The position numbers and the translations under genes were made by a program. A stretch of DNA of 63,227 bases, the filler included, from Dugesia japonica (taxonomy: Eukaryota), in NCBI GenBank assembly GCA_001938525.1. It is 5 parts of 5 records of this genome, joined end to end, with 100 filler letters (N's around TTAATTAATTAA, not from the genome) between each part and the next. Parts side by side here need not be neighbours in the genome. Positions count along the whole stretch, not along the records: positions 1 to 25,758 come from MQRL01619024.1; 4 more parts are not named here. One strand, given 5' to 3'. Shown here piece after piece: positions 1 to 35,429 of the stretch. Numbering within the stretch: position 1 is the first letter of the stretch; each line of letters opens with the position of its first letter. A model generated the notes under the pieces. That model searched no databases. It was not told the origin of the DNA and saw only the letters and a program-made list of their open reading frames with translations.

Positions 1-845
1 CCAATCAAAGAAAATAATTATAAAAGCTTTTATGACAACAAACGCAGTCAAATTATATGAAGCAAAAGATTCAAAGATTGAAGATTTCGAAACAAGATGT
101 AGAGAAGCATTTTCAGAGCTTGCAGATCTTGGTAAAGATCTAAATAATGACTTAAAATATTGTAGAATAAATGAATCCTCAATTTCATTTTTTTCAAAAG
201 TTCAAAAATTAGCAGTTGAATTCTGGCGTCACAAGTTAACAAAACAAACTCGTCAAATTCTTTTAACAAAATTCAATGGACGATAAAGAAGTTAAATAGG
301 AAATCAAAATGCGAGACATAGAAGATGTTGAAAAAATTAAAGAAGTTATAATTAAAATTAATGGATTGAAAAAGGAAATTGAACAAGAATATGGAATATC
401 AGCGTTGAAGAAAAAAGTTACATATGCAACAGTAGCGAGTGAAATTCTAAATTCAAATAATAGATTTAATAAACCAAGATTCAATGGAAATTTAAATAAA
501 AGTAAAAATTATGAACAGAAATATGATTCCAAGATATATCGAAGAAATACCGGAAATTTTATGAGAGGAAATTATGAGCCCAATTTTCAGACTTTCAGAG
601 TGAGAAAATGTTGGGCATTTGGAAAAGATGGTCACATCCGCTCACAATGTCCTAATGTTAAATGTTTGCATTGTAAGAATCCAGGACATCTTCGATTTCA
701 ATGCCATAAAATTAATCCTTTGAGAGCAGAAAGAAGACAAATCTACAACAAGCAACAAAGATTTCAAATGAATACCTATGATGATGATGATGATGCTTGT
801 CCCAGTGATGGAGTATAACAAGGAGATAATTCGGGAAATGCCTAA
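1..845 (+). pseudogene. gag: Ty3/Gypsy element 1 gag (5' truncated, internal stops)
   Basis: Two zinc knuckles, CWAFGKDGHIRSQC (degenerate) and CLHCKNPGHLRFQC, in ORF 309-818. The frame reads on to SGNA* at 843-845, directly upstream of pol motifs. Confidence 0.85.
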
Positions 846-874
846 GCTCTGATGAGGGAGGATCCAATTGGAGC
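833..874 (+). promoter_or_regulatory. Putative -1 ribosomal frameshift signal at the gag-pol junction
   Basis: G GGA AAT slippery heptamer (833-839) in gag phase, a 6-nt spacer, then stem GCTCTGAT/ATTGGAGC (846-853/867-874). The -1 frame is the same frame as the protease ORF at 1250. Confidence 0.6.
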
Positions 875-1189
875 TAGAAATCTAGGTCAGATAATAATGT
901 TTTGATCACTAATGTATGTGATATGACTGCTTGTGAATGTTTGTTTGATGTAAATAATAAAAATTTTAAAAAATTGAATGATTTAGTTTGATTGAATGAA
1001 TGTAAATATTTGCCGATTGATGATTTATTTAAAAAAACTATAGAATATAAAAATGATTATTTTATAGATAATATTTTAATTCCTAATTGTGCTTCAGCTT
1101 TAAATAAGGATTTAAATAATGCAAATTTAATAAATAATTATTAAGATAAGATTGTGTATAATAAAATGTCCGAAAGACCCTGATTAAAG

Positions 1190-4108
1190 TTAAAGTTAAA
1201 TAACGAATTAAATGTTAATTGTTTACTTGATACTGGCGCTAAGATTATTGTGATTGACCATGCAATATTTTTAAAATTAAATATTACTAAAATTAAAAGT
1301 GAATATATTAATGTTACTTGTGCTAATGAAAGTCAATTAAAAATAAAAGGTAGTATTATATTAAAAATTACACTTAATAATCAAACAGAATATATTAAGT
1401 TTTATGTTGCAGAAAATATTTCTCCCAGTGTTATTGCCGGAATTGGTTTTCTATCTAAATTTAATATCAAATTAAAAATGCTTAATTATATTGAATAAAA
1501 AATATGTGAAATAAAAACTTTGAACTTTAAAAATGAAATGAATAAAAATATTAGTGACATAATTGAATGATTTTCATAAATTTTTATGAAAGATAAATAT
1601 GATGTAGGTAAGACAACACTATTAAAACATGAATTTGTTACCCACGGTGGTCCAGTTGTAGTAAATACTAGGTGAAAACCTATACATTTAGAAGATAAAA
1701 TTAATAAGGCTATTTTAAAAATGGAAGAAAAGGGTATAATTAAACACTGTGATTCTGAGTGGAATAGTTCATTAGTTTGTGTTTGGAAGAAAGAGAAAAA
1801 AGACATTAAATATTGCTTGGATTTTAGATTATTGAATAATATAATGGAGAGACCATTGTTCCTAATACTAAATATAGGAGAAATGCTTGACATTTTGAAT
1901 GGATCAAAATATTTTACAACAATAAATTTGTGTAATGCATATTACCAGGTATAATTAGAGGAAAGTTCAAAATACAAAACGGCATTTTCTACAAAGTTTG
2001 GCCAATTTTGCTTCAACCAAATGCCATTTGGAATAGTTGCAGCACCAGCAACATTTCAAAAATTAATGACAAAAGTTTTAGGACCATTAAATTGAAAGGA
2101 AGCTATTGTTTATCTTGATGATATACTGATATTTTCNAAAANTGAGAAAGAGNATACAAAAAAATTGGAAAATGTTTTTAATCAAATCAAAAATTCAGGT
2201 TTGAAATTAAGTTCTGATAAATGTGTATATGTGAAAAGTGAGATTAGGTTTCTTGACCATATCATTTCAAAAGATGGTTTAAAAATAGATCCAGAAAATA
2301 TAAGAGCAATTAAAGAATTTGAACAATCTAAGTGTTTGAAAAATCTTCGTGGCTTTTTAGGGCTTACAAATTATTACAGAAAATTTATTAAATATTATTC
2401 AAAACAATTGAGGATATTAGAAAGTTTATGTGGAAACAAAAAAAATTAATTAATTTGGTCAGATCAATGAAAACAAAGTTTTGAAGCTTTTAAAATAGAA
2501 CAAATGAAGGCTCCTATACTTATTTATCCAGATTTATCCAAAGAATTTATACTGGATACAGATGCTAGCCTTGACACATTTGGTAGAGTTTTATCACAGT
2601 TAGATGAACAATGCAATGCACAGGTTATAGCTTATGGATCAAAATTAGGTTATTCTATAACCAGAAAAGAGCTTCTAGCAATAATTTATTTTACTGAACA
2701 TTATAAACACTATTTATAGGCGAAAAGATTTAAACTTCGAACTGATCACAAAGCCATAACTTTTATGATGAATACAAAAAACTGATTACTCCACAATTTT
2801 AGACATAGATCAATTATTTAAGTTTTTCAATGTTAAATAAATCGTGAGAATTCGAAAAAAGGGAAAATGAAAACAAAAGTCTTAGCAATTGAGCTTAAAA
2901 CAAATGGTAATAAATGGCAAAAAAACTCTGAAGAAATTAATAATATAATAGGTAACCTAAAAAATGGTGAAATGAATTCAAAATTTAAGTTTTCAAATTG
3001 TATCATAATGACTAAAAATAATAAAATTTAGATTCCTTTGGAATGCAAAAAATTATTTGTAAGAAATAAACACGAATCATTATGAAATATAAGTTCTCGA
3101 AAAATGGCAACTCATATAAGAGCAAATCATGATATAGAAGATCTAGAAGAAATATTAAAAGAGATTACTCAAAGTTGTAAAAAATGTCAATTAAGAAAAA
3201 CAGACAACTCAAACAAAAGAAAAACTATTACTGTTCCAGTTGATGACAAATCATTCTTATTGACTTTTGTGGTCCTTTAAAGAAAACATTATATGGAAAA
3301 CAATACATTTTAGCTATAAATGATAAAGTTAATAGATTCATATCTCTCAATGCAGTATCATATCAAGATGAAAATACCACTGTTTAAATATTAAAAAATA
3401 ATTGAATTTTCAAATACGGTGCACCGAGAATAATACATACAGATCGTGGGAAATCATTTGAATCAAATCTATTCCAACAATTAGCTAAGGAATTTAATTG
3501 TGAAATCCAATACTCTAGTCCATATCATCATAGTACAGTGCAGTCTTGTTAACCCGCGGTCACTGGGGTCCATGATCTACCCCCTTGGGTTAAGTCAAGT
3601 GGGAGTCATATTTGTCATTTAACAAATAAGAAAGAAAATGTACAAAACAAATAAAATACATTTATTATTAATACATATATGTAAAAATATAAGAAACAAT
3701 CACTTTTTTATCAACCCATCTATAATATTAAGTTGTTTTCTAGAAATGTTTTGAAATTTATTTAATTCCTGGAACATAGTTCTTGCTTGCAGGACTCGGG
3801 TCTGAATGCCCTTTTATTCATAAAAGTCCCTTAAAACTATGTATGTGTAAATTCGGGAGCCAAGGCAGAATTGCGGGTTAAGCAGAACTGTGGGTTAACG
3901 AGGCGCGGGTTAGTGGGACTGCATTGTAGTAATAGAATAATTGAAAAATAATTTCGATTTATATGAGATACAATTCATATTAGCTTACAAGATAAGAAAA
4001 AGCAGGACTGGATCAAAATTTTAGCAGAAAAAGAATTTATGCTGAACACCACAATTCAGAGTACGACGAATGTATATCCAGCTGAAATAGGTTTTAGGAA
4101 AAATTTAA
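1190..4108 (+). pseudogene. pol: Ty3/Gypsy element 1 pol (PR-RT-RNaseH-IN), decayed
   Basis: CLLDTGA (~1220), LDFRLLN, MPFG, YLDD (2111), FILDTDAS (~2546), RTDHKA, IHTDRGKSFES (~3432), YSSPYHH (~3511). Domain order is Gypsy-type; many stops and frameshifts. Confidence 0.93.
3536..3926. mobile_element. Tc1/mariner-superfamily (pogo/Tigger-like) MITE inserted in the Gypsy integrase
   Basis: Imperfect 23-bp TIRs (CAGTGCAGTCTTGTTAACCCGCG versus reverse complement CAATGCAGTCCCACTAACCCGCG). TA on both sides (3534-35, 3927-28). Subterminal GGGTTAA repeats. Removing the element restores HHSSN in frame. Confidence 0.85.
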
Positions 4109-4439
4109 TCGTCAAGGAGTGCTGGGCACGTTTCAAAAGCCCCAATTGGTATGATATACTCTTATGCATGTCATCTAGCCGGAACTACTGGGTGTCTTGA
4201 CTACTGCGTCACCATAAACGGTATTTACTTGAGTGTAATTACCGGAAGCACCTCATCACGTAAAAGCAATTCGCATTGGTAAATTGTTAGAATTAACTAG
4301 CCTGATCTCATGACAAAGTTTTCTTTGCTGGTTTGTCCTTACATACATGCGCATGATAGGATTCAGATATTGAAGTGCTCTTAAGTTAATTCAAACACGC
4401 ATAATAAATTCGAATGAAAAAAGGATTTTACATTGTTAA

Positions 4440-4960
4440 ATTTCGATAGCGGAGTATGATGTCAGGTATGAAAAGATCTCAAGTTTAGATATGACGAAAG
4501 ATTTCAAGTTAATTGCCATAGTTAATTGTTCAGATATGAAACAATTTCAAGTTTAGAAATGAAAAGAGATTTCAAGTTTAATTGTCATAGTTAGTTGTTC
4601 AGATACGAAAAAGGACTTCAAGATTAATTGTTTTAGTTAATTTCATGCATAATTGTTCGGATAGGTATAGGATTTAAAGTTTAACTGTTCTTAAAAAAAG
4701 AATTATCATATAAAAAAGGATTTAAATCTAATTGTGCTTATGAAGAAGGATTATCTCGTAGTTAATTTTACGCATAAGGATTAAGATTTAAAAAAATTCC
4801 ACGCTTAAACGTTCTGATAAAAAAGGGGGATTATCACGCATAATTATTTGAATATTAAAAGAATTCCAAGCTTAATTGTTCTTCTAGAAAGGAATTTTCA
4901 TAATTGATTCCACGCATAGTTGTTCAAAGATGAAAAGCAATTAATAAGATTCAAGGGCTT
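4440..4960. repeat. Degenerate tandem repeat array upstream of the element 2 gag (possibly inside its LTR or leader)
   Basis: Recurrent GATTTCAAGTT(T)AATTG, ATAGTTAATTGTTCAGATA and ACGCATA units. Confidence 0.7.
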
Positions 4961-5289
4961 CAACGAGAACGTCGAATTTGTACAAACCCGGGTGAGGAAT
5001 GAACGATAAAATTATCTTCAGGGTATGGCTAAAATAACATACTAACGGAAACCAAAAAAAAGGATACAAAAAGATAAATACTGAGGGTAAAATTGTATTG
5101 TTATATGAAAAAAAATCTTGTTACGGGTACAGAGCATTCATTGGAGAAAGCACATTCAAGCCGGAAATCGTTGCAACAAATAGGCTTTATCCAGGTATAA
5201 AACTTTACTAACTATCATTATAACTAATATCATTACTAACTATCAACTATAACCAGTTATTGCTCCAAAAGCCTGTCTAGAGATAGTGG

Positions 5290-8200
5290 GGTAAACCCTT
5301 CGACAGAAACCCGGAATATGTAGATGAATTCCTATGGAGCTACGAACATTACGCAAATTCCTATGGTTATAGTTAAAAACATAAAATTGACTTGGTAGCA
5401 CTGTAACTTAAAGAAAATGCTTTAAAAGTTTACCGACAACATAGTCAAGAAACTATTGAACCATTCAAATCATGGAAGGAAGTAGACCTACTTCTTAGAC
5501 ATAGTTTTAAAGAACAAAGAGACTTTCTACAAGCAAGAAAGGAACTCTCACAATGTCAACAACATGACGAGGAGTCATCTCAGAATTACGCCATACGATT
5601 TAGACAACGATTATTTAAAGTACCTTGGCCAAAGGAAACCGGCGATCAATGTGTGGGAATTTACATTAAAGGAATCAAAAGTAAAGAAATACAACAATTA
5701 GTTAAACTAAAAGAGCCCAAAACAATTACAGAAGCCATAACAATACATCGAGCGGAAGAAAAAGAGATACTAGGGCAGAATTACGTATCCATGCTTTGCC
5801 AGAAATGTCGCAATAAAGGTCATACAGCGACAGAATGCTTATCAAAGAAGAAGAAATGTGGAAAGTGCGGGCGCAAGGGACATAAAATGGAAGAGTGCCC
5901 AAACCCGGCACTCATTTGTCGCTATTGTCAAAAAATGGGTCACCAAATATTGAATTGACCCAAGAAAGGATGTCAAGGTAGTAGAAATAATATGGAAGAA
6001 GATGAAGAGGTACATTGTTGGAATGGAAATTGGCAAGTTTAAAAAATATTACCCAAGAATAATGAACCAGAAAGATTGTATATGCTACATATTGAATCAA
6101 AAAGGTCACCCATAAATCAAGAATTGAAGAAAGCAGAAAAAGCTAACATCAGGAAAGCAATGGAAGAAGGAGCAGTAAAAGAACAAAAAAACAAACTGAT
6201 ATGGTGACGATATAAACAACTGGAAGGAAGAAAACGAGAAAAAAATGAAACCTTTCAGGAGTTTGCAGCCGCAATAAAGAATTTGGCAAGATTAGCAGGC
6301 CTAGCAAATGAACAAATGATAGTAAGATGTTTCAGATCTGGATTACGAGACACATTGATAAGAAGTAATTTAGCTTCAAGCAAACCCCACAATTTGACTA
6401 CCGCTATATTAAAAGCGGAAGCAATGAGGGAAGTATTAGCAGAGCAACGACTAATTTTAGGAAAGGAAACTGCTAATCACGAAACAAGGTATAAACAATT
6501 TAACATGTAAAATAGATGTCAAAATTGCCAAGAACTCATCATAATACTAATCAATGTACTATTAAATATACGTATTGTAGCATCTGCTGTCGGAAAAATC
6601 ACCCTATAGATATAAATCTATGATCTCTACCAACTTCTTCCTTTTTCGTTATAGCAAGAATGCTATACAAGAAACATCTATTATCATAGTTCTGTACATT
6701 AACAATGGCTTTTTGTTGGCACAGATATTGTAGCAAATGCGGTAAAAAGGATCACCCGGAAGAGATATGTCTACTCAAGAGAATCAGAACAGAAGAAGAT
6801 CAAAGTTCAAGAGACGATAACGAAAGTAGCGAAACTCATAGCCAAAAAAGTGTGAACCAAAGTAAAGAATCAACTAAATTGCACATGCTAAGAATCAAAG
6901 TACATGATTGCCTAAGAATTAATGAGGTATTACCAAAGGCTCAGCGAGTACAAAAATGTTACAATTGCAACAAAGAAGGGCACCAAGCTAAAGATTGTCA
7001 AACAAAAAATAAAGTGTGTTACATCTGTGGAAAACAGGGCCATATCGCAAGATTATGTCTAGACAGAATAGACTTTGCAGGACCAAGGAATATAACAGAA
7101 GTCAGAAGAAGTTGTAATTAAGAAGAAAACCGTTTTCCAATTAAATATGTACAATGGTATCAAATACGACAAGATAAAGATGCTAAAAATACCAGGAATA
7201 AAGAGGTACTAGGAATCCTGTCCAAAGAAAACCATCAGTTACGTGAGCGAATGAAAAGTAATCATCAAAGAATCACTCGACTAAGAAAAGCCCTAGCCGA
7301 ACTAAAGCTCAATGGAGAAGAAAAGTCATCAGAGGAAATCATGCAAAATGAGAATAAAATAACTCCAGAAGATAAAACAAACACCGAATCTAACGAAGAG
7401 GAGCAAAACGAGCAAATAGCTGTAATAGTAACTTAAGATAGCGGATTTAGCCTTTCACTAATAGTACAAATAAACAACCAAACACTGAAAACCCTTTTAG
7501 ATACTGGAGCATCCCGATCAGTATTGAATATAAAAAATGGATCCCGAAACAAAAGAAAAGAAATAAAACCCTATACAACCAGAGCAACAGGGGTTAATTG
7601 GGAAACCATGCAGATCATTGGAACATTAGAGTACAATGCACAACTTCAAGAAAAAACGATAAAACACCAATTCCGTGTAATGAAAACCAATGTAGATGCA
7701 GTATTGGGAACAGATTTAATGCCAAAATTGTTAATTGGGACAAAATTGGATTTTAGTACATTCCAAATCGAATTGGAAAAACCAAAATCAGAAGTGATAA
7801 GCATGTTGCAAGTAAGTCAAGAAATTCCTAATCTATGAAAAGACCAAAACATTTGGGAAGACCAATATCAAAATTGTCTAACTAAGGAAACTATAAAAAT
7901 AAATACCAGAGGAATGAATAACGAATAAGAGGCAGAAAGAGATTGTGTAAATAAAGTCCAAGAGGTCATCAAAGTAATAAGTAAAAATAAACAACTGATT
8001 TCAACCAGAACAGCAGAACTCATCGGAGCTCTACATAGTTTTAAACCAATTATTAGTCAAGAACACCAAGTGTTATTAGAAGAGTTAGTATAACCAAGGT
8101 CAAAAGTTATTAGGTTTAAAACAATAATCATTTAAAACATATGTTTTATGGCTTTGCAATAAGAGAAAACTGATCATATCACGAGATTATCGCTGGTGTG

Positions 8201-10424
8201 ATATAGCGGAATTAATTGAAAATAACCGACAGACGAAAAAAGGGAAGAATTATATTTCGGTTCTACACTTATTGACAGCGAATCCATGGACTCAATACAA
8301 TTAGGAGTACTCTGGAAAAATGCTCGCATAGATATATTCGTCCAGAATAAAGGAAATGGAAGAAATAACCGACATCTGAACCGAAGAAAGGCCTCCGAGC
8401 ATTAACATTATTTAACGACCAGATAGCATCAAAGTGCCAAGAACCAAAATCGGCAATGAACAAAAAAACAAAGTATGAAAAGAACATTGAAGAAAAAGAA
8501 ATCTTGAATGCATCTAAAGACTAACTACAAACGGTAGCTATGCAACTACAAGAATTAAACAAAATAACTCACAAAGTAAATATAATGCCTGAAGAAGCAG
8601 AAGAAAAAACTGTGTTAGTAACAAGGTTACTAAAACTCGTAGAACAAGAACGGCGGATCTTTATCAGTATGCAAAAGTGCAAAATATGTAAAAAGAAGAG
8701 AGATATAAAAGAAAGTTGTTGGGCAGATAAAATATGCAAAATAGAACACATGTGGCAAAAAAGAACACATATGAAAGAATTGTAGCAATAAGCGGAAAAT
8801 GGTTAGAAAAGAAACAACCCAAAAGGTTGCCACAGTAATGAGGAACAAGAAAATATAGTGACCGACTCGATTAAACTCTGCATGCTACAGGTGGAAACTG
8901 TAGATATAATAGAACCTGATGACTTCACAGAAGTAGTATAAAAAAAGAAAAGAGAAAGGAAAAAAATTAGAGAAATGAAAACCAGAAGCCAGTTATCAGA
9001 AGTAGGCACTCTAAATATACAGAAAGCCGAAAAAAATCAAACATGTAACCAAGAACAAGTAAACTATATAACAAGGTCGAACTTAAATCAAGAGTCGAAA
9101 TTATCATCAAACAACGATCTTACCGATCAGATGGAAGAACTGTTATGGGTATTAACGTTACAACAAAAGGAGTTGGAAGAGGTAACCAATGCAGTACGGA
9201 AAGTATCGGTAGAAGCAATAGTAGAAAATGTCTTAAAATCAAGGCTATCGAATTTCAGAGAACAAGAAAAACAGACGAAATTCGCAATGTAATTGTTGTT
9301 AAAAACCTGGAATGAAACGGAAGAAAATATAATGAAACCCATGATACCAGAACAAAAAAACTATACGTGTAGTGAATGTGGTAAACGTGGTCATCTGGCA
9401 ACCTGGTGTTGGAAAAATAGATTATGTAAATATTGTGGGGAATCAGATCACCCAAAGAAACTATGTTGGAAAAAACCATGCAAATTATGTAGCAAATTAG
9501 AACATACAGAGAAACAATGTAAAAAAGAATCGGATATCGAACCTATCTTTAGAGAGAAAGGTTGCACGAGATGTGAAAAAAAGAGACCACACGATAGCTT
9601 CATGTGGGATAAAACCAAAAAATGTGGGTGCAAAGAACATACTGAAATAGTATGCCAACCGGAAAAGCAATGTACTAAGTGGAAGAGGACATCTAGCAGA
9701 ACAATTTGGTATTCCTAGATGTTTCAACTGTGGTAGAGCCGGACACATCATGAGAAGGTGCCGATTTAAAGCAAGTAATGAAGACTTAGCTATAATAATA
9801 GAAAGATCAAACAAGTTTTGTATGTTACAAGTAACCAAGGAAGAGGAATTAACGCAAACACCTGACATTTTGAATGGAAACCAATTAATGACACATGTAG
9901 AACAAGATAATTATCAGACAGTACCAGAAGACTGGCAGAAAATGCTTAATGCATACGATGGCCGGATATCCAGATTAGAGGAAGCCTTACGGTTGAGTGA
10001 AATGAAATTCCAAAATTTCAAGTTTTTAGCAGATAAAGGAATGGGAGAAAAAAGAGATGCGATAATATTAAGGGATACAGAGATGGCCCACCTACAAAGA
10101 AGAATATCATTCAACCAAAACCATAAATCCCTAGTAGAAAAGGCTTTACGTTCAAGCCAAATACAATGTCAAAACTTTAAACTATTGTCTGAGAAGACCA
10201 TGGAAGAACAGAGGGCAACCAATGGAAAATTGTTAGAAATAATTGAGGAAAGAAAACCATTCTACAAATTTTTAACGGATCAACAAAAGAACTGGAAAAC
10301 AGGAACAAACAAAAATTTAAACATGAGCAAAATCGATCAGCCTCAAACTCCAAAACCAAATGATAACGAAACCTGGAACAAAACAGCACCAACAAAGCCC
10401 ATTGCAATAATTAGCCTCATCTGA
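5290..10424 (+). pseudogene. gag: Gypsy-like element 2: expanded Gag-protease polyprotein with many zinc knuckles
   Basis: Gag N-terminus KPFD..DEFLWSYEHYA. A second capsid C-terminal-like block at 6205-6510. CX2CX4HX4C clusters at 5797-5958, 6517-7060, 8677-8830 and 9367-9761. Protease LLDTGAS at ~7494. Strongly A-rich; broken by stops and frameshifts. Confidence 0.85.
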
Positions 10425-10489
10425 CAAAACCAATCATTCAATGGACAATCAGACCACTCGATAATCTATTCAGGAGAAAGTAACGATCA

Positions 10490-12745
10490 TATAAGTAAGT
10501 GTATAATATTATCAACAGTAGATATAGACCAAGCGTATTATAAAGTCGAACTAGAAGAGAAGCTTAAAATTAAAACCGCTTTTTTACAAAGAAAGGCCAG
10601 TATTGCTATGATCGCATGCCATTCGGCCTATCAACCAATCTAGCTACGTTTCAAAAATTAATGCAAACAATTTTGTCAAATATTCTATTTAAAGGCGTTG
10701 TAGTTTTTATTGATGATGCTCTAATCTTTGCGAAAGTTGGAAGGAACATGATCGCATTCTATCAAAAGTATTTCAAAGAATTCAAACATCTGGTCTTAAA
10801 GTAAATCCAGCCACATGTAAACTGTATCAATAGAAACTAGTGTTTTTGGGTGATACAACAAATAAATTTGGATAAAAACCAAATTTGGAGAAAGTCAAGA
10901 AGATTGTTAATGCTGGAATTCCAAAATTTACTAAAGAATTGCGATGTTTTCTTGGAATGGCAAATTATTACAGGAAATTTATAAAGAATTTTTCACAACT
11001 TGCTACATCTGTATATGCTGCTCCAGAATGTCAAAAGCACGAGATAATGTAGACAAAAGAATGCGAGATGAGTTTCAGGAAAATCAAGGAAGCTCTTTGT
11101 AATTCTCAAGTATTTGGGTATCCTAATTCAGAAAGTCAATTTATTCTGGATACTTATGCCAGTTCTTCGGGACTTGGTGCTGTATTGAGCCAATCACAAA
11201 ATGGTATAGAAGTCGTTATAGCATATAGATCAAGGTTGTTGATATTGTGTGACCAGGAAGGAGTTATTGGCTCTTTATGAATTTATTCGACATTTTCTAC
11301 ATTATCTTTATGAGAAAAGTTTTGTCGCAAGAACAGATCACAAAGCTTTAGAGTTTATAAAGAATTCAGAAAACCGATTACGCCACAGTTTCAGACTTAG
11401 ATGAACGAATTATCAGAATATAATTTCGTATTGAAGTATAGAAAAGGGGAACATCATTACATAGCTGATGGTATTTCAAGATTGCCAATGTCAGACTGAA
11501 CATGAAAATGCCAAGTCTAAATCGTCTATGGTAAAATATTTAAATGTTATGAACGTTTTCAGAAGTAATTTGCACAATTACATAAAGAAATTTAAAGAAG
11601 ACGAATTATTTAAGGAAATCAAAATTTAATTGATGGACAAATATGTTAAATTATCAGAAACGTTTAAAACTTCCCAGTATTTTAAATATTTGGATAGGTT
11701 TTTAATTGAAGACGATATTCTGTTAATTGAGTCAGATGATGAGCAAAAGATAGTGGTTCCAAAAAGATGCTTAACTGATTTTATGAACAAATTTCGTAGA
11801 GATTTATGCCATGTAGGAATAAAGAAAACAACAAAATATATATCTGATTATTTCTTCTGGCCGAATATAATTAAGGATGTTTGGAATGCTATCAAAGTGC
11901 TATCATTTTTGTATGTACAGAAAGGTTAGTAGTGAGAAAGTTAAGGAAACATTTATATCAAGATACGCAGCTAACCCGATGGAACCAATCGCGATAGATG
12001 TTGCGTATATGGATAACATTAAATCCAAAAAAAAATACATTATAGTAATAATTGATCAGTTCAATAAGTTAGTTAGTCTTATTGCAACCACAAATCAAAA
12101 CGAAAACACGATCAAAAGTGCATTGTTAAACAACTGTATTTACAAATATAGATAACCTAAAACGTATTGTTTCTGAGCGAGGAAAAGTATTTGAAGGAAA
12201 TGTTTAACAATAATTGGCTTCAAGATTTCATATTTTGTGGATATTTATATCTCCCAATGAGCATAAGTCAAATGGTTTAGAAGAGCGCGCAATTAGAACT
12301 GTCAGAGATATGATAGTAACATCCTTGAAATCTGGAGGAGAGGAGAAGTGTTGGAATGAAATCCATCCAAAAGTTGAGATTTCATTTAATTGCACGATAT
12401 CAAAGGTGGTAGGATTTTCTCCGATGGAAGTTATCTATGGAAGGAAAATTAATATTCATTTAACGAAAGAATTCAAGAGTAACCGTAAAGAAGTTCTGTA
12501 AAAAGCCGAAAGTAACATAAACGAAGCTTCAAAAATAGAGATGAATCAAGAAGGAAACCGAGTTGAAAGGGAATTTAAAGTTGGATATAAAGTTCTGGTA
12601 AAGAGAGATCGGACAAAACGAAAGAAAAATGATTATATATATGATGGACCTTACAAAATTATGGAATTCCTATCACTTCATCAAGTAAGATTGCAGAATT
12701 CAGAAGTTTCGAAATACAGACGTATAGAATAACTGAAAAGGTGTT
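10490..12745 (+). pseudogene. pol: Ty3/Gypsy pol (RT lacking its N-terminus, RNaseH, integrase with GPY motif)
   Basis: STVDIDQAYY, MPFGL, FIDD, FILDTYASSSGLGAVLSQ, RTDHKAL, CHVGIKKT..FFWP, IAIDVAY, SNGLEERAIRTVRD, YDGPYKI. Confidence 0.92.
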
Positions 12746-12753
12746 AACAATCT

Positions 12754-13019
12754 GGAAGAGACGGAGGGGTTGGAAATAAATGTGACCTTGAAGTTTTGTT
12801 TGTATATTAAAATGTAAATAATAAAGATATTTTCAAAATTTAAGATGTCTGTTATTACTGATTTAACTTGTAAGATGGGATATCGATAGACAATTCCCTA
12901 AGTTTGTCGTAAATTCGTAATGATGCGAATGAGTAGATAATTAGGCTTTTAGTTCATTATTCTGAATAATTTTTTGATTGAAATTTCTTTTTCTTTTGAA
13001 TTCTACTGAAAATCGCAAC
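12754..13019 (+). repeat. Polypurine tract and probable 3' LTR
   Basis: GGAAGAGACGGAGGGG immediately after the integrase end, followed by a TTGG...GCAAC segment. LTR limits are approximate. Confidence 0.5.
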
Positions 13020-13029
13020 GATATTTATA

Positions 13030-13920
13030 CCAGTTGTCTGGTACGCCCCCGTTTTTTCTATTGGTTAATATACATCCTTAGATTTTTCTACCATGCTTAT
13101 TAGCTGGGTTATTCAATTTTTGTCACCTGAGTTCTTCTCATTAGTCAAAACTTTGGAATTCCGAAACTGATTCCTAAACTAAATTTTTGAAAACCTTGAC
13201 GTTTTCTTTACTATACTTTTCTTATCTGCCGCTTTTTACTTAATAGGAATTCTTCGTTTTCTTATATTTTATTATAAATTTAATTTCTTTTTTATAACAC
13301 ATCATTTTTTTAATTAAATTTAAAGTTTCAAAAGTCTCCATAAATTGTTTATTGATTATTACAAGTCTTTTCTTAAAAATAAAAATATGAAATAACAATT
13401 CACAAATTTCAAACAAATAACCTGAGAAATCTTAATAAAATATTTTTCAAAAATATTGGTTTTTTAAATCCCAAAATAATTACTTTTAAACCTCATTTTA
13501 GAAAATAATTTTGTAAAATTTTATAATTTAACAAAATGTAAAATTTTGACTTTAAATTAAAATACCTATGTTTTACATATATATATATTTTTTGAACCTA
13601 ATAATTTTTAAAATTTTATATTTTAAAAATTTCAAAAAACCAATCTTAATATTAAATATAAAATTTAAAAGTCTCAGACATCCGAAATTCATCAATCGAT
13701 ACTTACAATGCATGATTGATTTTATTTAATAAATTAATTATTTATTTTTCTTCTCTTCTCAATTCATTTATTAGATTTGCATTTTTTCGTTTCTAAGCTG
13801 GAATTTAATTTAATTTAGGTGTTTCTTCCAAAAATTAATTCATTTAATTTATTTTCTACCTCTTCAATTATTAATCTAATTCGATTATTTTACTTTAATT
13901 TATTAAACTTTTACACTAGC
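13030..13920 (-). repeat. Dispersed repeat family (probable LTR remnant), copy A
   Basis: Shares CTATTGG (CCAAT) motifs, TGGAATTCC and CAATTATTA..T.AAT blocks with 30790-31749. Confidence 0.4.
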
Positions 13921-14699
13921 AGTCTGAAATCGATATTGCTTGAACGTCTAGTGTGGTGATAGTTAGTCATGTCACCGCCGTTATGTGATTCATGCTGTTA
14001 AATTCATAAAAGAAATTTTATTGAAACATAATTCCTAGTTAGTTATAGTAAAAGTGTTCAAGAATTAATTCAATGACTGCAGAACATTAATAACTATCCT
14101 AATTTATTTCCTAGTGCACTAGTGTTGTGTGCCCCTTTACTGGTTCAATTGTCTGTAGGGGTGTTGAAATTGTTACCTCCACCAAATCTAGCATGTTACT
14201 AGATTTATTCTGCCAGTGCATTTTTACTAGAAGCATCATCATTTTTCTGGCGAATCTCAAATATAATAGATGATAATAGCATATTTTATGAATGAATTTA
14301 TACGTTATCCACGCCGATACACTCATGTCTACATGAGGCTAGTGCTGGTTTATATGAGGGGAAAAGCGAACATGTTTTAATATTTATTAATAGTCAATGC
14401 TGACAATCAATAGGATGTATTCACGACTAATTTTCACCGAAATGTAGTGGTTAGAAAGGAGTGTATAACGCCATTATTGTAGGTGTCAGTTTGTGAGTGA
14501 GTTAGAATTGTTGCTATATGATTAAACATACGAGTGAACGGTAGAAAAAAAATGAGTCCAAAGTAACATTTCTAGTTTATTGAATCGTAAAATAACAGTA
14601 TCTTTTACAAATAACAGATAAAAAATTAATTTTAACATGATGAAAATTAATTAAACATATTCTCACTTTTTATTGAAACTTTCTGCAACTAATGTTTTT

Positions 14700-15484
14700 C
14701 AGATAACGGTAAATTGATCATATCACAGCCCTGTTTTTCTCGATTAAAATATTGACTAAATGATTTATCACTCAAATTTTACTCAAAAAACTGACTTTCT
14801 GTTTCAATTTTCGGTAGGTTTTATTTTGCGTTTTTCATGTACACCAACTTAGTTCCTATTGGACCAATATTTTTAGAACTTTTTTAAACTTTTATTGGCT
14901 CCATTCTTATTTTTAGACTTTTTCTAACATTTCCTTTGTTTCTGGTTGGTGGTTATTTAGGGTAACCAAATGACTCCTTGGTCTTTGTTTCTACTCTATT
15001 TTATGGTACCTTATTTACTCAATCTTCTTGATTCTTTCTTGACTTTCCTGAAGGCCATACTTTTTATTTTTTGCAAAATGTTATTGCTTTTGCTGAGAGC
15101 AATCCAGTTTTTCTTATCCCATTGATTTTACGTTACCAGTAAAAAAGTTATTCATCTTTTACTTTTTTGCGTTAATGATTTTCTTTTATTTGCACTTGTT
15201 AATTAAATTATAGGTGACTAATTATTATTCTTCTCACTGCATTTAATTATTTTCGTATTATTTCCGATCTTTCTTCTGATTTCTTTCCTAATATTCTTAA
15301 TTAATTATTTGCAATTATTTTCTTTTTATTGTTTTAATAAAATTAGTATTAAATTGTGGATTGTCTATTTTTTGGGTATCTTCCTGGTATTATTTCTTAC
15401 TTCTTATCTTTTAATTAATTCATCTTCTTGGTTTTGGGCCCCTACTATTTTTTATTTCTGATACTCGGGTGTTTCACCCCAACA
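14700..15484 (-). repeat. Dispersed repeat family (probable LTR remnant), copy B
   Basis: Ends GGTGTTTCACCCCAACA, nearly identical to the end of copy C (reverse complement begins TGTTGGGG). Contains TATTGG boxes. Confidence 0.5.
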
Positions 15485-17074
15485 GATCTAAGAAATAAAA
15501 AAGAAATAAAATAACATACAAATAACTTAAAACCCAAGTAAACATAAAGATCCTATTAATTTAAATTATTTAAAGGAAACATTTAAAGATCTAGACCACC
15601 TTGGCGGGAGAGTCCAAAAGATCTAAACCGCCTTCAGTGGGTGAATATAAAAGATTTCGATGTTAGGTTATAAATGGTGGAATGATATTTGAAATATTTA
15701 AATATGATACAAATAAAAAATTAACGAAATTTATAGAAGTTNAAAATAATGGATCAATTTATTATTCAAAAACGTTAGAAATAAATATAAAAGCTACAAA
15801 TAAAAATAATAGTAACTAATAATATAAAAATAATAGGAACAATTTGTTTTTAAATTTAAAGAATTAAATCAACAATGAAATCAATCAAATGTTTCCGCCA
15901 ATAAAAAATATGTGACAAAAATGAATGAAGCTAAGCATAATGTTTCAGACAAAATAAAAGGTTGTAATCTCAACTAGAAAAAATAAAATATCATGTTGAT
16001 GAATTATGGAAGCATAGAGAAAAGGAGGTTACAGTTATTATAACATAAATAAACCAGGTAAAAAAATATTTGATGAAAAAATAAAATTATTAAATTTATT
16101 TTCAGATAAAAGTCAAACCTATTAGGAGTTAATGAAATTATTAAAAACTTTTAAATTGATATATGCAACGTTTCCTGTTGGTTACCACACAAATTCATTA
16201 AATGTAATAACTGATATTAATTGTTATGAAATGATGAGTGCAGACAACCACATCATCTAATTATACATTTAACTAAAGATTTTAATGCTATATTTATCTT
16301 AAAAGCTCAATGAAAAGCTCAATTTTATGTTGAAGGACAGCTACTTAGATATAAATATGATGAATACATTTTCATTACTAATGATATAAAATGGTGCTCC
16401 TTTGGAGTTATATTTTTCCATAAATAGCTTGAAATTATTCAATTTATATTATATGAACGAAATTGAATAGGAATTGATCAAAGTTCTTTTATTATCATAA
16501 CTTAATCAGGTGGACTTCTTTATAAATATTGCAAACTAGGAAAAATTAATGTTATTAAAAAAAGGATTGACTGCATATTATCATAAACTCGCTATGTCAA
16601 CATGTATTTAATTGAAAACTTTAGGGATATCATTAAAATTTTTGGTATGTTAATGAAACTGGTAATTCAATTTCATATTTGAGAATTTGAAATGAACCTT
16701 AACATGAACATGATGCTGTTAATTTAAAATATTTAAGAAACTTTTATAAAACATTATTTCATCCAATTGATACAACAATTGAAACATTTAAAGAACGTTT
16801 AGAAAAGTTATCAGTTAATACAAGATTTTAGGTATCTCCAACATTTAATTATTATAATGAAAAGATTTGAAGTGTAAGCCATGTGTCAGATATTAGATTT
16901 CAATTTTCTAATAATCTTATGAAATCATATTTTTGTTACGATTCGAAAAATGAAATTATTTCAACATATCATTTTAATGCAGTTTCTTACCGTAAATATG
17001 CATTCTTTATTATTTTCAATATAATATTTACATGTGATATAATATTTACAGTTGCAAAAAACCAATAACTTTGG

Positions 17075-17335
17075 TAATTTAATCGACCTTTGTCTATCAT
17101 CTGTATCTTCAAAACCAATTGCTGCAAGATAAATGTTTTTNNNNNNNNNCGTTGTAATTCAAAACAGTTTCGATCATGGCTTTTTGAATTTATGTTTCAT
17201 TACCTCCTTCAATCTTGTTATTGTTGAATGAAAGGACAACATCTTTAAACAGAGTATGAAACCCGTAGTTGCTCGGTACTACATCAGACTTACTGGATCA
17301 TGGATTTATAGAGCATGGATTTACTTAATCAGCGT
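17075..17335 (-). pseudogene. Polinton major capsid protein fragment
   Basis: Translates DVVPSNYGFHTLFKDVVLSFNNNKIEGGNET..KAMIETVLNYN; close inverted match to 18668-18756. Confidence 0.8.
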
Positions 17336-17383
17336 TTTCTAATATAAAAATGANNNNNNNNNNNNNNNNNNNNNNNNNNNNNN

Positions 17384-17535
17384 GAAAGAAATTGAAACCA
17401 CGCGATGTAATTGTTGTTGATGATTTATACCAGGAAGCTAACAAGGAAAAGGACTTTAACAATTTAATTGACAAAAATATTAAGATATTGTAATGTGACT
17501 GTGATTTTCATTACTCAAAATCTATTTCATCAAAG
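17384..17535 (+). pseudogene. Polinton packaging ATPase fragment
   Basis: KLKPRDVIVVDDLYQEA (Walker B) followed by NVTVIFITQNLFHQ; homologous to the copy at 23270-23892. Confidence 0.8.
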
Positions 17536-17574
17536 AGAATTCATACGTAAAATTTTATACGTGAATGAGCCTAA

Positions 17575-17865
17575 AAATCTAACAAACAAAAGACTAATCT
17601 CTCCTTTTGTTTCACATGGATGATGTTTTGAGCTTCAAAATACACTTCGCACCGCTTGATAAATTTCTCACTATCATCTCCTCAGCAGAACTACTTTGAC
17701 AATAACCTCTCTGTAATAGAATCGGTATTTACCGTTGTCACCATGTTAAGTAAATCTTCAAGTGGTATTTCATTTTGCAAATCATAATTAATATTTTGAA
17801 ACATCATTTATTTTACTATTACAACACATGTTTCATAATATAAATAATATTGAAATACAAGCATT
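17575..17865 (-). mobile_element. Gypsy LTR end plus gag N-terminus fragment
   Basis: MFQNINYDLQNEIPLEDL...GDDSEKFIKRCEVYFEAQ. The upstream sequence is near-identical to 35590-35700. Confidence 0.6.
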
Positions 17866-17900
17866 TNNNNNNNNNNNNNNNNNNNNNNNNNNNNNNNNNN

Positions 17901-18757
17901 GGTAAAATTGTTAATTAATAATTATTTCCTCATACAATGTATTTACTAGTTACCACTACCTGTATAAACAATAAAGAAATCAATATACGAAGTGCAAGTC
18001 GAGAATTAATCAACTTTGCTAAAGACTCAAAACTCATTTAACTTTACATTTTCGAAAAGTAAATGTCTAATCCCGATATTATTAAACTTTATATTACTAA
18101 TCAAGCTGGGGGAGAATTACCATAGTTTGTAGAAATACAGTTTGAATCTGGATAGTTGCAAACAATTATTCGATTTGCTTTGCCTATTCTTAGACAATTG
18201 AAGCTATTTGGAATGAAAACAGCAAACGATATAATAATTAATAAAGCAAATATTTTGCATTGTTTCAAAACAAATCCTATGACTGAATTCAAGGATTTTA
18301 TGTCTTCTCCAGAAGTTACAAAAATAATGCCAAAGGACAACACTACAAAATAATCTAAACTCAAAGGTGCTGGAATAAAGCTTAAGCCTTCAATTATAAA
18401 CAAACAAATGAATGGCTATGAAACTATATTTGAGAATGCTTTGCGGAAAAACTAAACTATGTATTTTTTATTGTCTAACTCTTCAAGGTGTTATTGAACA
18501 TGGATTATTTGAAGATGTGTTTCCAATGAATTCAATTTCTGAAAGTAGAAATGTNGTAGAGTTCTTTATAAATTGATCGCAAACTGATTATCTGGGTTTC
18601 AATGATACATTGTTGTATGTATAAGTAAGAGTGTTTGATAGATCTGTAAAAGACTTGAGTGAAAGATCTGATGAAGTACCGAGCAATAACGTGTTTCATA
18701 CATGTTTAAAGGTGTTGTCTTTTCATTCAACAATAACAAGATCGAAGGAGGTAATCT
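17901..18757 (+). mobile_element. Polinton copy 1 fragment: penton C-terminus, core protein, MCP N-terminus
   Basis: CINNKEINIR..INF..LTLHFRK; MSNPDII..NQAGGELP..LQTIIRFALP; GKTKLCIF..IEHGLFEDVFPMNSIS..NDTLLYV. Same gene order as copies 2 and 3. Confidence 0.8.
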
Positions 18758-18761
18758 CTAC

Positions 18762-18895
18762 ATAGATTTGATGTATGAGTATTGACAATTTAGTCATTGT
18801 TTACTGGAATATATTTTGTAAGTTTTTATAACGCATAAACACCTAACCATACTGATCCACTTTGATGCAATCCGATAAATCTGAATAGTACTATT
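18762..18895 (-). pseudogene. Adenain-like cysteine protease, N-terminal fragment
   Basis: WLGVYAL.KL..IPVN..IVNTHTSNL, matching the fuller copy at 32090-32450. Confidence 0.7.
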
Positions 18896-18959
18896 AAAAT
18901 AAAAATCATTAATATAAAGCACTTACTTTATAACATGTACCAATTACACAACATATTGT

Positions 18960-20170
18960 TTACACTAATATTGTTCCGTTTTCTTTAATCTGAATTTCTA
19001 TTTCAAATACTCCATAAATTATAACATATGCCTATGTTATTAAAGCTTTGGCAAACTTGATTTTCAATCTCAAATTTCCTTGTTGAGGTAATTGTCTTTG
19101 ATTTATATCGAAATCTGGAGCAACAAAAAATGTAAAGAAGAAATAATTATCTTTAAAATCTTGAAATGTTATTCCACAATTCTTATTCTTATCAAAATAT
19201 CCCATATTTTGTACTATAGATTGCATACATGTTGTGGCATATTTATTGTTTGCAAAATCTTAAGTATATATTTATCGATAATCACTGTTTTTCGCCAAGG
19301 AAATAGAAACTGCATCTATATTTTGAAATGCTGAACTCAAACTTTAATAGCTACCATTATATTGTTCACCACTTTGAAATGTAACCAAAATAAAGCTAGG
19401 TTATCGACTATCACCAAAGATTTGTTCCTTATAAAACGATAAACTATCTTTACTAATTGCAAAGGTAACAACTTCTTTGTTTCTTATTGGGTAAACAGAA
19501 TTTTTCTTTTATAGACCTAATTGATGTACAACTACTACTGATGGTTTAATGCGTTCACGTTTAATTATTAATTTTGCATCTAGTAATACATATCTTGGTT
19601 CATTAGCTGTAGATTCCAAACGAATCTTAGCAGGTGATTGTTTCAATCGAATATGAACATTGACACCAGGAATAAAGTATTTTGATTGATCCATGAAATT
19701 GAGTTGTAATGAACCGCATAGAGTTAATTGTTTTGATATTTTAATAGACTTTTTTTTATCTGCTTCTGATCCATTTCCTATTGCTGCAAGACAGATTTTT
19801 TTACTATCACAATTATAATTTATTATAGTTTCAATTATTGCTTTGTGAAGATAAGATCCATTTCCACCTTCAATATTGAAATTATTTAACGAAAGAATTA
19901 AATCCTTGAAAAGAGTATGCAGCATATAATTACTAGGAACTGCATTATGAGTGTCAGTGAAATCTTTACCAGCCTTATCAAATACCTTTACTTTAATATA
20001 CAATAATTCAAATCCAAATATTCTATTTGATATCCATTTATAAAAAACTCTACATCACTTTGTTATTCAGAAATTGAATTCATAGGAAAGGCATCTTCGA
20101 AAGTACCACTTTCAATTGCAGCTTGTGGAGATGGTCGATCAAAAATACATAATTCAGTTTTACTGCAAAT
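18960..20170 (-). pseudogene. Polinton major capsid protein (double jelly-roll, hexon-like)
   Basis: PSNYMLHTLFKD, KAIIETIINY, FMDQSKYFIPGVNVHIRL, FFVAPDFD..GNLRLKIKFAKAL. Confidence 0.85.
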
Positions 20171-20204
20171 CNNNNNNNNNNNNNNNNNNNNNGGCCTCTC
20201 ATTC

Positions 20205-20649
20205 GTTTGTTTATACGTGATCCATGAGAATTGTTACGTTTTCTACTATTTTGTAGTGTTTTGACTAGGTTTGATTGCACATTAGTTATTTCAAATGGTA
20301 TTTTATTAGTTATACTTTGCGGTAATATGTTTGCTATTTTTGGAATCATACTGGTTACTTTGCAAGGTAACGATAACATAACATTTCCAAGCTCAGCTAA
20401 TGCATTAGAGTTTAATGTTGGTAGTATTTTTCCATCATTAGCTAAGACATCTTGAGCTGTTTTCATACCAAAAGAACAAATAAGTTTAAAAATCGGTAAA
20501 GCAAATCTACCTATTGTTCTCAACAAAACGGATCCATACTATTTTCCAAGAAAGTAAGGTATACTTTCTTGGAAAATAGTATGGATCCGGTTGGATTCTC
20601 CCTTTGCTTGACTAGTATTATAAATTGAAAAAATATCAGGATTTATCAT
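20205..20649 (-). pseudogene. Polinton putative core/membrane-active protein between penton and MCP
   Basis: YFLGK.YGS..LRTIGRFALPIF followed by a basic tail (RINKRMRG). Homologs lie at 18063-18420 and 33745-34098. Function is inferred. Confidence 0.6.
20529..20589. repeat. Perfect 28-bp inverted repeat with a 5-nt loop
   Basis: CGGATCCATACTATTTTCCAAGAAAGTA-aggta-TACTTTCTTGGAAAATAGTATGGATCCG. Confidence 0.95.
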
Positions 20650-20654
20650 TTAGT

Positions 20655-21630
20655 TTTCTAAAATGAAAAGTTAAATAGGTTTTTGAATCTTATGGAAACT
20701 TGATTAATTTTCTGTTATCATCACGTATATTAATTTTTACATGGTTTATACATGATGTTGCAATAGGTAAATACATTGGATTATCAACCATTTTTTGTAC
20801 TTCTTTATCAGTTTCATGCTTTTCTATCCATACTGATTTCAAAAAAGGCACACTAACATCTCCTACAATTATAGGTTCAACAAGATTACTATAGACGAAC
20901 ATTTGCTGTTGTAACTTAATGATTTTTTGATTTCTATCACTTTGTATTACACTATTTTTCATATCTGCAAGGGAATAATGTTCTTTTTTTAAGCCCAATG
21001 TTTTTGACAAGACTTGATCAAATGTAAATGTTTAGATATCATCTATCAGTGAGAATTGAAATAGATTATTTGCTCAGAGAGAGATAATATTAAATAGTTC
21101 AGATCCGCTTTTTTGAAATTTTGACTTAGTTGCTTTATTTCTGTTATGTATAATTTATCCTTTAACAGTCATTATAAGTTTTACATTTTCTATTGAAAAA
21201 TCATCTTTAAATGATGTATATATAATAGAAAGCCATTTTTATCCCTGTCGTTAGATTTATATCGGAATCCAAATTTATTTGCTATTCTCTCATGTTCAAA
21301 AGTGAGTATATATTGATATTGATAACGAAGAGTTAAATGACCTCTGAAAGATATAAAAGCAATCTCATTATGCTTGGCAGTCACGTATTTTGCCATTGTG
21401 ATTAAGTGTAATAGTTATTTAATTTCTATATTTTTAGATTTCATGTATTGAATTTTAGAATTGCTATATAAAGGAACTATTTGATATACAAAGGTAAAAT
21501 CTAACAATGCTACTTCCCAACTACAATCCATATAAATTGGATTTTGAAGCTCAACAATGAATTTACTAGCATTATTTTCCGGATGAATAAGTGGACAGCT
21601 ATTAATTGGTAAAAGTGTATATTAATTACT
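20655..21630 (-). pseudogene. Polinton minor capsid protein (penton)
   Basis: TLLPINSCP..HPENNASKF..WEVALLDF at the N-terminus; MFVYSNLVEPIIVGD..P.L and INIRDDNRKLIKFP at the C-terminus. Confidence 0.8.
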
Positions 21631-21649
21631 CGATTTTATCTGAATTTTC

Positions 21650-22560
21650 TTCTTGATTGACTACGTGTGATGCTAATATTCAACTTGGTTTTTCGTATCC
21701 ATCCCACTTTACATAGTATTGTTTATTCTTTCCTGATCCTTTTGATTTGATTATTGTTTCTATTCTATATATCTATGATGATGGAATGACTTGTAATTCT
21801 TACTCATAGAACTTTCCTTGTACGGTATATTTTACATAATTTTTAAAAAAATACATGACCGGATTTAATTTTGTGTTAATTTTATGTATTTGAAACCCTT
21901 CATCACTCCAATTAATATTGAAATTCTTGATAAATAGTGAAGCTGATATTTACGAGATTCTCACATGATCGCCAACTTTATACTTTGGTTTTTATTTGCT
22001 TTTGAATGTTTACGTGATAACCATAACTTAAATTGATTGTTTGTGCTTATATCAACTGGTCTTGCTCCATTTAATTCCTTATGACCAGAATAATTATAAC
22101 TATGAATACGTTTCGGTAAAACATTTATCCAAGTCTTATTACCTACATGTACAACATACTTTTTCAATGCATCTCTCAATGTGTGATTAACTCTATCTAC
22201 ATTTGCAGCTTTATACTGAGAGAATACAATATAATGGTTTGTGGATAGATAATTAAAATGTTGTTTCACCTCGGAATTGTAAAATTCCTTACCCAAATCC
22301 GTTTGTAAATTATCTGGATGTCCATTTTAAAACATTGACTTGATTGTAGGTTCCATATCATTAGCAGATTTTGATTTAACAGGAACATCTCTTGGAAAAG
22401 TACTGAATACATCAAAATATGTCAAAATAAACTTGTAACCTTTTTTAATTTTTGAATATGGAATCATCTCCATTAGATTTATTTGCCATAAATCATCAAT
22501 ACCATATGTTTTATATGCTATTGTTGGAAATCGTTTCAACATCGGCTTGTTCAGGTTTTT
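21650..22560 (-). pseudogene. Polinton retroviral-type (RVE) integrase with C-terminal chromodomain-like region
   Basis: IDDLWQINL, YKFILTYFDVFS, LQTDLGKEFYN, KAANVDRVNHTL, VKWDGY. Confidence 0.88.
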
Positions 22561-22687
22561 TTGGATCCGTCTATTTTGTCTTTAGTTTCCCCATTAAAAC
22601 AATTCGATGCAAATTTTAAGTCAAAATTAGGCAATGATTGCAACCCACCCATTGTTTATTAATATATTGGTTAAAAGCGTAAATTGT

Positions 22688-33720: not shown

Positions 33721-33744
33721 AATAATTAGTCAAATATGGGTTTA

Positions 33745-34098: not shown

Positions 34099-34099
34099 T

Positions 34100-35415: not shown

Positions 35416-35429
35416 GTTGTTTATTCTTA

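Follow-up and report, generated by a model that had tools for sequence, protein, structure and literature searches.

In Gypsy-type retrotransposons, Gag usually carries few CCHC zinc knuckles, and the protease leads almost directly into the reverse transcriptase (RT). We describe here a unit from Dugesia japonica with another layout, located at 5290-10424 on the + strand of a window of 63,227 nucleotides (nt). The window is the whole stretch of DNA analysed, joined from five parts of assembly GCA_001938525.1, with positions 1 to 25,758 derived from MQRL01619024.1. The unit is a single decayed frame of ~1,700 codons, ordered as capsid, three knuckles, a block resembling the C-terminal part of a capsid, 3 + 2 knuckles, protease, and helical spacers with nine further knuckles. 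It is a real and unusual multicopy Gypsy-type Gag-protease variant, known from one dead copy.

Among described elements, Burro1/GYPSM1 of Schmidtea mediterranea has in common with the unit an N-terminal retrotrans_gag domain with three CCHC, a long frame and a high copy number, and it carries zinc-finger (AIR1) and coiled-coil-type (Smc) motifs. The Burro opening, an N-terminal retrotrans_gag with two or three CCHC behind it, is present in the unit. The knuckle arrays and helical spacers of the unit may correspond to the AIR1 and Smc motifs of Burro. In the available sections of PMC6431247, MATH, BCL2-like and Env regions of Burro1 precede the protease, dUTPase and then RT follow it, and a second capsid block is not mentioned. 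The protease of the unit, in contrast, comes at about residue 700. The capsid-to-protease distance is only ~530 codons, occupied by knuckles and the second block. Pfam gave no MATH, BCL2-like or Env match, either in the capsid-protease interval or in the 2.6 kb that follow the protease, and no dUTPase match in 7740-10481, where a very decayed domain could be missed because frames are broken at 8090-8390.

Juno1 and Juno2 of bdelloid rotifers also have a zinc knuckle downstream of the protease, in pol. As far as the consulted part of PMC5408684 goes, they differ in having one extra knuckle after dUTPase and then RT, two gag knuckles, and no reported arrays or second capsid. A first-pass annotation of the locus, made from the sequence alone, had given as a rule that all Metaviridae knuckles lie upstream of the protease, which is too strict in view of the Juno1/2 knuckle. 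Plant Gypsy elements with AIR1/UMSBP likewise keep extra nucleic-acid-binding zinc-finger domains in families, in plant hosts (PMC9289625, in part). If the unit is non-autonomous, it would share capsid coding without RT or integrase with TR-GAG of plants. According to the portion of PMC4350172 covered, TR-GAG elements are under 4 kb, with one gag frame, one knuckle and no conserved protease, whereas the unit has 5.1 kb of coding sequence with a clear protease. In Ty1 p22, Gag's C-terminal half occurs as a separate product, but this is a Copia-type protein made from an internal transcript and not a second copy within a polyprotein (PMC4599808, in part). Troyka was dropped from the comparison, as the covered part of PMC12440569 holds nothing on knuckle arrays and the unit has no termini to compare. 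The portions of PMC8532177, PMC11410931, PMC13238120 and PMC13524379 that were covered hold nothing bearing on the layout. Overall, the layout is undescribed in the full-text literature searched, with most subscription papers, Grohme et al. 2018, Repbase and GyDB outside its reach.

Domain order and zinc knuckles

The frames were traced at ~5260-10480 with a codon model whose training set was the stop-free sequence of the unit itself, which makes it partly circular. Frames are least sure at 8090-8390. The model yields 1,734 codons in 7 segments with 20 stops, in agreement with the single polyprotein frame of about 1700 amino acids (aa) proposed in the first-pass annotation. At least 870 codons of spacers and knuckles follow the protease, and no N letters occur inside the unit. 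Its features are listed below; P0001 is a partial protein relative and X16 an RNA run, both presented further on.

5290..5790, + strand: capsid domain of the Retrotrans_gag / Ty3_capsid type, with two stops (5374, 5404)
5785..5802, + strand: cut-site-like VSML at the capsid/knuckle border, variant without the last V/I; putative function
5797..5958, + strand: knuckle cluster 1 with three CCHC, of which the third ends in a stop
6076..6093, + strand: cut-site-like LYMLHI, a motif match
6200..6470 (about), + strand: probable second capsid C-terminal domain without N-terminal domain (Retrotrans_gag tail match, ESM Atlas)
6517..6770, + strand: knuckle cluster 2 with three CCHC; a frame change near 6529 divides the first, and an insertion interrupts the second
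6613..6712, no strand assigned: T-rich insertion of 100 nt inside a knuckle, missing from some related contigs and 3 X16 RNA reads
6879..6896, + strand: cut-site-like LHMLRI; P0001 has LYLL at the same place
6957..7058, + strand: knuckle cluster 3 with two CCHC, both intact; P0001 has three
7437..7805, + strand: protease of retropepsin type with its Asp codon at 7500; ~125 aa lie between two hydrophobic borders, IAVIVT in front and ISMLQV behind
7806..8790, + strand: post-protease module 1, with unassigned spacer, helical repeat at 8450-8670 and two decayed knuckles (8678, 8742); several frame changes at 8090-8390
8876..8893, + strand: cut-site-like LCMLQV, a motif match
9080..9761, + strand: post-protease module 2, with helical repeat and seven knuckles (intact 9368, 9425, 9479, 9720; decayed 9563, 9614, ~9670)
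9816..9833, + strand: cut-site-like FCMLQV, in a context that duplicates the one around the 8876 site (z 5.6)
9834..10424, + strand: post-protease module 3, with two 40-aa helical repeats at 9936-10055 and 10095-10214, 40% identical; stop at 10422-10424

Two features expected of Metaviridae, a Gag with a Ty3/Arc-type capsid and a retropepsin protease after it, are both present. In Pfam, the capsid matched Retrotrans_gag (E 4.7e-13) and Ty3_capsid (E 1.7e-7), and all three of its matches among PDB sequences were Arc capsids (best E 5e-4). The protease carries LLDTGAS, as annotated at first pass, and matched Asp_protease_2 (E 6.2e-6) with RVP also above the cut-off; Ddi1 and the EIAV protease were its best PDB sequence matches. 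Domain matches and knuckle counts together confirm the architecture initially proposed, i.e. a capsid, knuckles on both sides of the protease, and further coding sequence after it.

The second block had been put forward as a duplicated capsid domain, and this holds in part. The block is probably a C-terminal half capsid and not a full duplicate, a moderately supported assignment based on profile and embedding similarity. It matched only positions 58-97 of the 97 in Retrotrans_gag (E 0.04, below the family cut-off), while ESM Atlas gave 0.93 to the Retrotrans_gag cluster set (10 of 30 matches, recognition 2874). Comparison with the C-half of the first capsid reached z = 2.0 only, BLASTP gave no significant match, and the PDB sequence search no capsid match. 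Single-sequence folds were poor (pLDDT 57 and 50), and fold searches returned nothing significant for the second block. They are uninformative on this point, since the well-supported first capsid failed in the same way.

Seventeen knuckles were counted in five clusters of 3, 3, 2, 2 and 7, eight of them before the protease and nine after it. All four ligands are kept in nine CCHC, at 5797, 5857, 6729, 6957 and 7017 before the protease and at 9368, 9425, 9479 and 9720 after it. The remaining eight (5917, 6517, 6576, 8678, 8742, 9563, 9614 and ~9670), counted by eye, are decayed by stops, frame changes, an insertion or ligand loss, and a very doubtful remnant near 8800 would bring the total to 18. 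The earlier estimate of 18-20 was therefore slightly too high, but right in placing many knuckles on both sides of the protease. None of 300 shuffles produced a strict CCHC. With a scoring matrix derived from 857 database knuckles, nine matches scored at least 10, and there were none in 30 shuffles and none on the reverse strand. No Pfam family was found in the post-protease segment 8429-9718, so that the post-protease knuckles are supported by the motif and by the matrix scan. Knuckle number varies within the family, because P0001 has three knuckles where this copy has two, and some related contigs skip 112 nt at 8736-8849, across the decayed knuckles of module 1.

Post-protease modules are partly internal duplicates. 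The spacer at 8450-8670 is duplicated at 9080-9290 (z 7.3), and the 40-residue repeats at 9936 and 10095 resemble each other with z 12.4. Neither module 1 nor module 3 matched Pfam, and ESM Atlas gave no usable match for module 3. The spacers are proline-poor and rich in E/K/Q/R, a helix-like composition that suits the coiled coils suggested at first pass; heptad periodicity, in contrast, reached p < 0.05 in just two of the seven spacers tested.

The M-L motif and a probable single modular gene

The end of the protease and the capsid/knuckle border are usual cut points in polyproteins of this kind. In the unit, five copies of the motif [VILF]-x-M-L-x-[VI] stand at module borders, before as well as after the protease (6082, 6885, 7803, 8882 and 9822). 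One copy closes the protease, leaving it the normal length of ~125 residues, and the others come after knuckle clusters. The main path through the frames contains seven M-L dipeptides, five of which fit the full motif, and a sixth, at 5791, departs from it in the last position only. The expected count on this path is 0.07, and no dipeptide reached five in such a context in any of 1,000 shuffles. Apart from these, the downstream pol has no copy of the motif, the remaining + strand has four in 50,226 codons, the three frames of the Gypsy element preceding the unit (called the outer element below) have two, and one more lies off-frame within the unit. These M-L motifs look like putative protease cut sites, as judged from their sequence and position; among the known classes of site cut by retroviral proteases is one with a hydrophobic P1-P1' pair (PMC3185560, in part).

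Synonymous codon use also joins the parts of the unit. At four-fold sites, the T fraction is 0.15-0.19 across its four parts vs 0.34 in the downstream pol (p 0.001-0.007 in four of four comparisons). Inside the unit, no composition break exceeds chance (2dLL 12.8 vs a block-shuffle maximum of 13.9), and a strong one lies at 10399-10687 (2dLL 66.6). No internal repeat pair that would indicate a nested insertion was found in the unit. A nested second element is argued against because synonymous codon use is largely uniform and the post-protease modules are internal duplicates. It is very unlikely that the unit is a patchwork, with post-protease knuckles coming from a separate nested or recombined element or from mis-assembled repeats. 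Such an origin would fit the dense nest of decayed elements with 39 N runs in the window, the least clear frames at 8090-8390 and the several-fold changes of depth along the unit, but the motif is of one kind, codon use alike and composition unbroken across the protease, and neither an internal repeat pair nor any N occurs in the unit.

We consider it likely that the unit is what remains of a single gene for a Gag-protease polyprotein in an abundant Gypsy-type family, grown by duplication of spacer-knuckle-cut-site modules and cut into pieces after translation. Active copies would translate one uninterrupted polyprotein in which a module comprises a helical spacer, a CCHC cluster and a protease cut site, and duplication of such modules would have extended the gene. 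The element's own protease may cut at the hydrophobic M-L motifs, releasing the capsid, a 3-knuckle nucleocapsid, a half-capsid fused to three knuckles, a 2-knuckle piece, the protease and spacer-plus-knuckle proteins. Nucleocapsids bind and chaperone RNA. The predicted products would raise the nucleocapsid dose per particle to several times that usual per Gag, and may coat, condense and chaperone the element RNA. The half-capsid with three knuckles might anchor RNA at the shell, or its role might resemble that of Ty1 p22 (PMC4599808, in part). The modular polyprotein with many nucleocapsid-like units suggested at first pass is thus supported by motifs, shared codon use, duplications and many relatives, with the correction that the second block is only half a capsid.

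By analogy with p22, the half-capsid with its knuckles could be a built-in regulator that joins capsid lattices and restrains or reshapes assembly of its own element or of a rival. We regard this as quite unlikely. The block is without the capsid N-terminal domain, and a cut-site motif stands before it and none between it and its knuckles, as such a product would need; on the other hand, this is an analogy only, the capsid identity of the block is moderate, and a one-to-one inhibitor in each polyprotein sits poorly with a very abundant family.

If the single modular gene is accepted, nucleocapsid dose would be scalable by module duplication within a polyprotein, here to ~17 knuckles in five clusters of a successful family. 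Six similar candidate sites for one Gypsy protease would offer a direct route to its specificity, and the arrangement would bear on packaging of very long or non-autonomous retrotransposon RNAs.

Relatives of the unit in DNA, RNA and protein data

The 9.2-kb stretch at 3900-13100 was compared with contigs of two DNA runs (X1 and X6) at an identity of at least 82%, which gave 10,401 and 10,743 related contig records, respectively. Summed depth in X1 was 5,600-73,000 in all 17 bins from 5128 to 10346, vs ~9 for a single-copy contig; it is no copy number and is read only as a sign of very many relatives. Mean X1 depth was 7,561 in the capsid part and 46,315 in the part with knuckles and protease; it was 38,097 in the post-protease part and 5,445 in the downstream RT-integrase, and X6 gave the same pattern. 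At the frame change near 6529, relatives accounting for 4,576 of 4,665 of the summed X1 depth differ from this copy. Further differences, in a best-supported subset, fall on two stops (5404, 6508) and on the 100-nt insertion. None of the 16 pieces listed, of over 21,000, shows the sequence behind the 10424 equivalent in other copies. Because relatives differ there, these lesions are not family traits.

About a quarter of each RNA run was covered, which gave 457 reads of relatives for X13 and 27 for X16; two thirds of them continue into unlike sequence. Relatives are transcribed at most weakly.

An exhaustive protein search covering 6690-10289 in one frame found a sole relative among the 150 matches listed. 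This is P0001, 155 aa long and 47-48% identical, encoded by a 933-bp contig and ending before the protease. The remaining listed matches were rejected as generic knuckles or generic proteases; in 32 matches that were scanned, Retrotrans_gag was never present and PNMA once. P0010 and P0123 were rejected as relatives since their layouts are unrelated. No homologue of the capsid segment was found among longer proteins (3,186 candidates) or shorter ones (266), lengths of 227-725 aa excepted, and none of the post-protease segment among 187 candidates. Viral and metagenome contigs gave no relative, with none of 25 loci matching any non-knuckle segment of the unit.

P0123 has 2,296 aa, encoded on a 21.7-kb ENA contig, and combines a Gag-like start and three knuckles with an in-frame Monjiviricetes-type fusion glycoprotein and then 3-4 tandem proteases, after which no RT was found. 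Env precedes the protease as in Burro, but the proteases are repeated.

Several points weigh against one modular, self-cleaving gene. The motif was picked after being seen, and its shuffle control covers the dipeptide and not the flank classes; moreover, retroviral proteases have no strict cleavage consensus (PMC3185560, in part). At four-fold sites, the post-protease module C shows a mild difference from gag and protease (p 0.03-0.04). The capsid part has a summed depth ~5-fold below that of the protease part, and no contig bridges the protease to the later knuckles among the 16 pieces listed of over 21,000. RNA support is thin, as only 6 and 1 reads in X13 and X16 reach 95% identity or more. 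Finally, no intact full-length relative was found, and the homologue searches described above were empty for the capsid and post-protease segments.

Missing pol and neighbouring elements

The unit is sandwiched between two ordinary Gypsy pol remnants on the + strand, at 1-4110 and ~10455-12750. It lies in or against the integrase of another Gypsy element, the outer one, whose integrase ends abruptly at ~4110-4125, where the unit starts with its leader. The neighbouring features are as follows.

1..4110, + strand: decayed ordinary Gypsy gag-pol (outer element) with 1-2 knuckles, protease directly before RT, then RNase H and integrase
4120..5289, + strand: non-coding, partly multicopy leader that precedes the capsid and contains a 68-bp tandem repeat (4462-4612)
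10455..12750, + strand: Gypsy RT minus its N-terminal part, RNase H and integrase, then a purine tract at ~12755-12769 (by eye)

The unit is a dead copy, ending at ~10425-10480 against the truncated pol of probably a third element. The downstream RT match begins at ~10455, at position 111 of a 199-position profile, and no RT N-terminus was found in 10200-10455. Its codon use resembles that of the outer element (p 0.06 and 0.7). DNA identity between the two is 68-69% in RT and RNase H, while the proteases of the unit and the outer element share 24% of residues. No long terminal repeat (LTR) pair was found between 4100-5300 and 10300-16000, nor in a window-wide repeat search, and the copy appears truncated. 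The downstream RT-RNase H-integrase probably belongs to another element, because its N-terminus is missing, its codon use differs from the unit and summed depth is ~7-fold lower.

Three explanations were considered for the missing pol; they concern the pol only and are compatible with a single Gag-protease gene grown by modules. The chance that a giant autonomous element of Burro type, possibly already in Repbase, had the unit as its 5' part, with its own RT further downstream and lost here, is a little short of even. Its knuckle arrays and helical spacers would then be what was annotated as AIR1 and Smc, in keeping with a Burro1 that opens with retrotrans_gag and three CCHC, bears AIR1/Smc motifs in a 4,873-aa frame and has thousands of copies (PMC6431247, in part). 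The copy stops abruptly at a foreign-looking RT, and extra nucleocapsid would suit a long RNA. Yet the MATH, BCL2-like and Env regions that precede the protease in Burro and the dUTPase that follows it are absent by Pfam from this unit. If it is the front end of a catalogued giant element, its description would improve annotation of what the AIR1/Smc labels hide.

It is possible, though with less probability, that the family is non-autonomous, with its own capsid, protease and nucleocapsid pieces, borrowing RT and integrase and using extra knuckles to out-compete the RNA of others for packaging. The stop at 10422 coincides with the estimated fall in depth, at ~10423-10428 if depth is flat within bins, and summed depth is ~7-fold lower over RT-integrase than over the post-protease part (5,445 vs 38,097 in X1; 4,922 vs 32,105 in X6), but this is no copy number, and truncation of this copy alone would give the same pattern. 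Median depth per contig is 27 in seven RT-integrase rows vs 420 in seven post-protease rows, a best-supported subset in which five of the seven RT rows come from the indel table. Gag-only non-autonomous elements are known in plants (PMC4350172, in part), but neither a 3' LTR nor a purine tract was found after 10424. A bolder and rather doubtful form would make the family an abundant animal retrotransposon without RT and integrase, in which a self-cutting nucleocapsid string with a half-capsid acts as a packaging parasite of Gypsy elements through its RNA-binding dose. That the downstream RT-RNase H-integrase is the element's own pol, joined by deletion of the RT N-terminus, is unlikely. It lies on the same strand in the expected order, its first RT piece is in frame with the last module, no N run occurs at the junction, and its depth (5,445) is near that of the capsid part (7,561); however, its codon use is unlike all four parts of the unit and like the outer element's, the contrast between 68-69% DNA identity of the pols and 24% shared protease residues points the same way, and the region after the integrase has no match to the leader at 4100-5300.

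The leader is without a partner LTR downstream. A 713-nt contig covers the leader/capsid junction at 4634-5346 without differences. Within 4821-5127, summed depth drops to ~210 between bins of 5,000-8,000, so that the leader may be variable or composite. RNA reads of relatives diverge from the window sequence past 4107, and the tail of the outer element's integrase does not reappear elsewhere in the window. Inside that integrase, a 391-bp element at 3536-3926 has inverted ends and TA on both sides (by eye), with a 17-bp repeat near its end, and looks like a Tc1/mariner-type miniature inverted-repeat transposable element.

The window as a whole is AT-rich and densely packed with decayed mobile elements, with 39 N runs; neither a second copy of the unit nor a tRNA gene was found in it. 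Several diverged copies (70-90% alike) of a multi-gene element lie at 17000-24000 and 32600-36700, one frame having the integrase core rve_3 (E 0.008). Fragments of DNA_pol_B_2, a protein-primed DNA polymerase B, were found at 26916-27784, 39545-40638 and 55745-56257 (E 5e-7 to 3e-4). Together they suggest what we take to be Polinton/Maverick remnants. A decayed minus-strand retroelement at 57678-60073 (RT E 1.2e-7) is non-LTR-looking by eye, and cysteine-rich open frames at 47894-49265, without a Pfam match, are possibly host-gene exons. Four blocks identical to one another, in which a 12-bp palindrome is flanked by 44 N on each side (25759-25858, 37981-38080, 46451-46550 and 54850-54949), look like assembly or masking marks and not biology.

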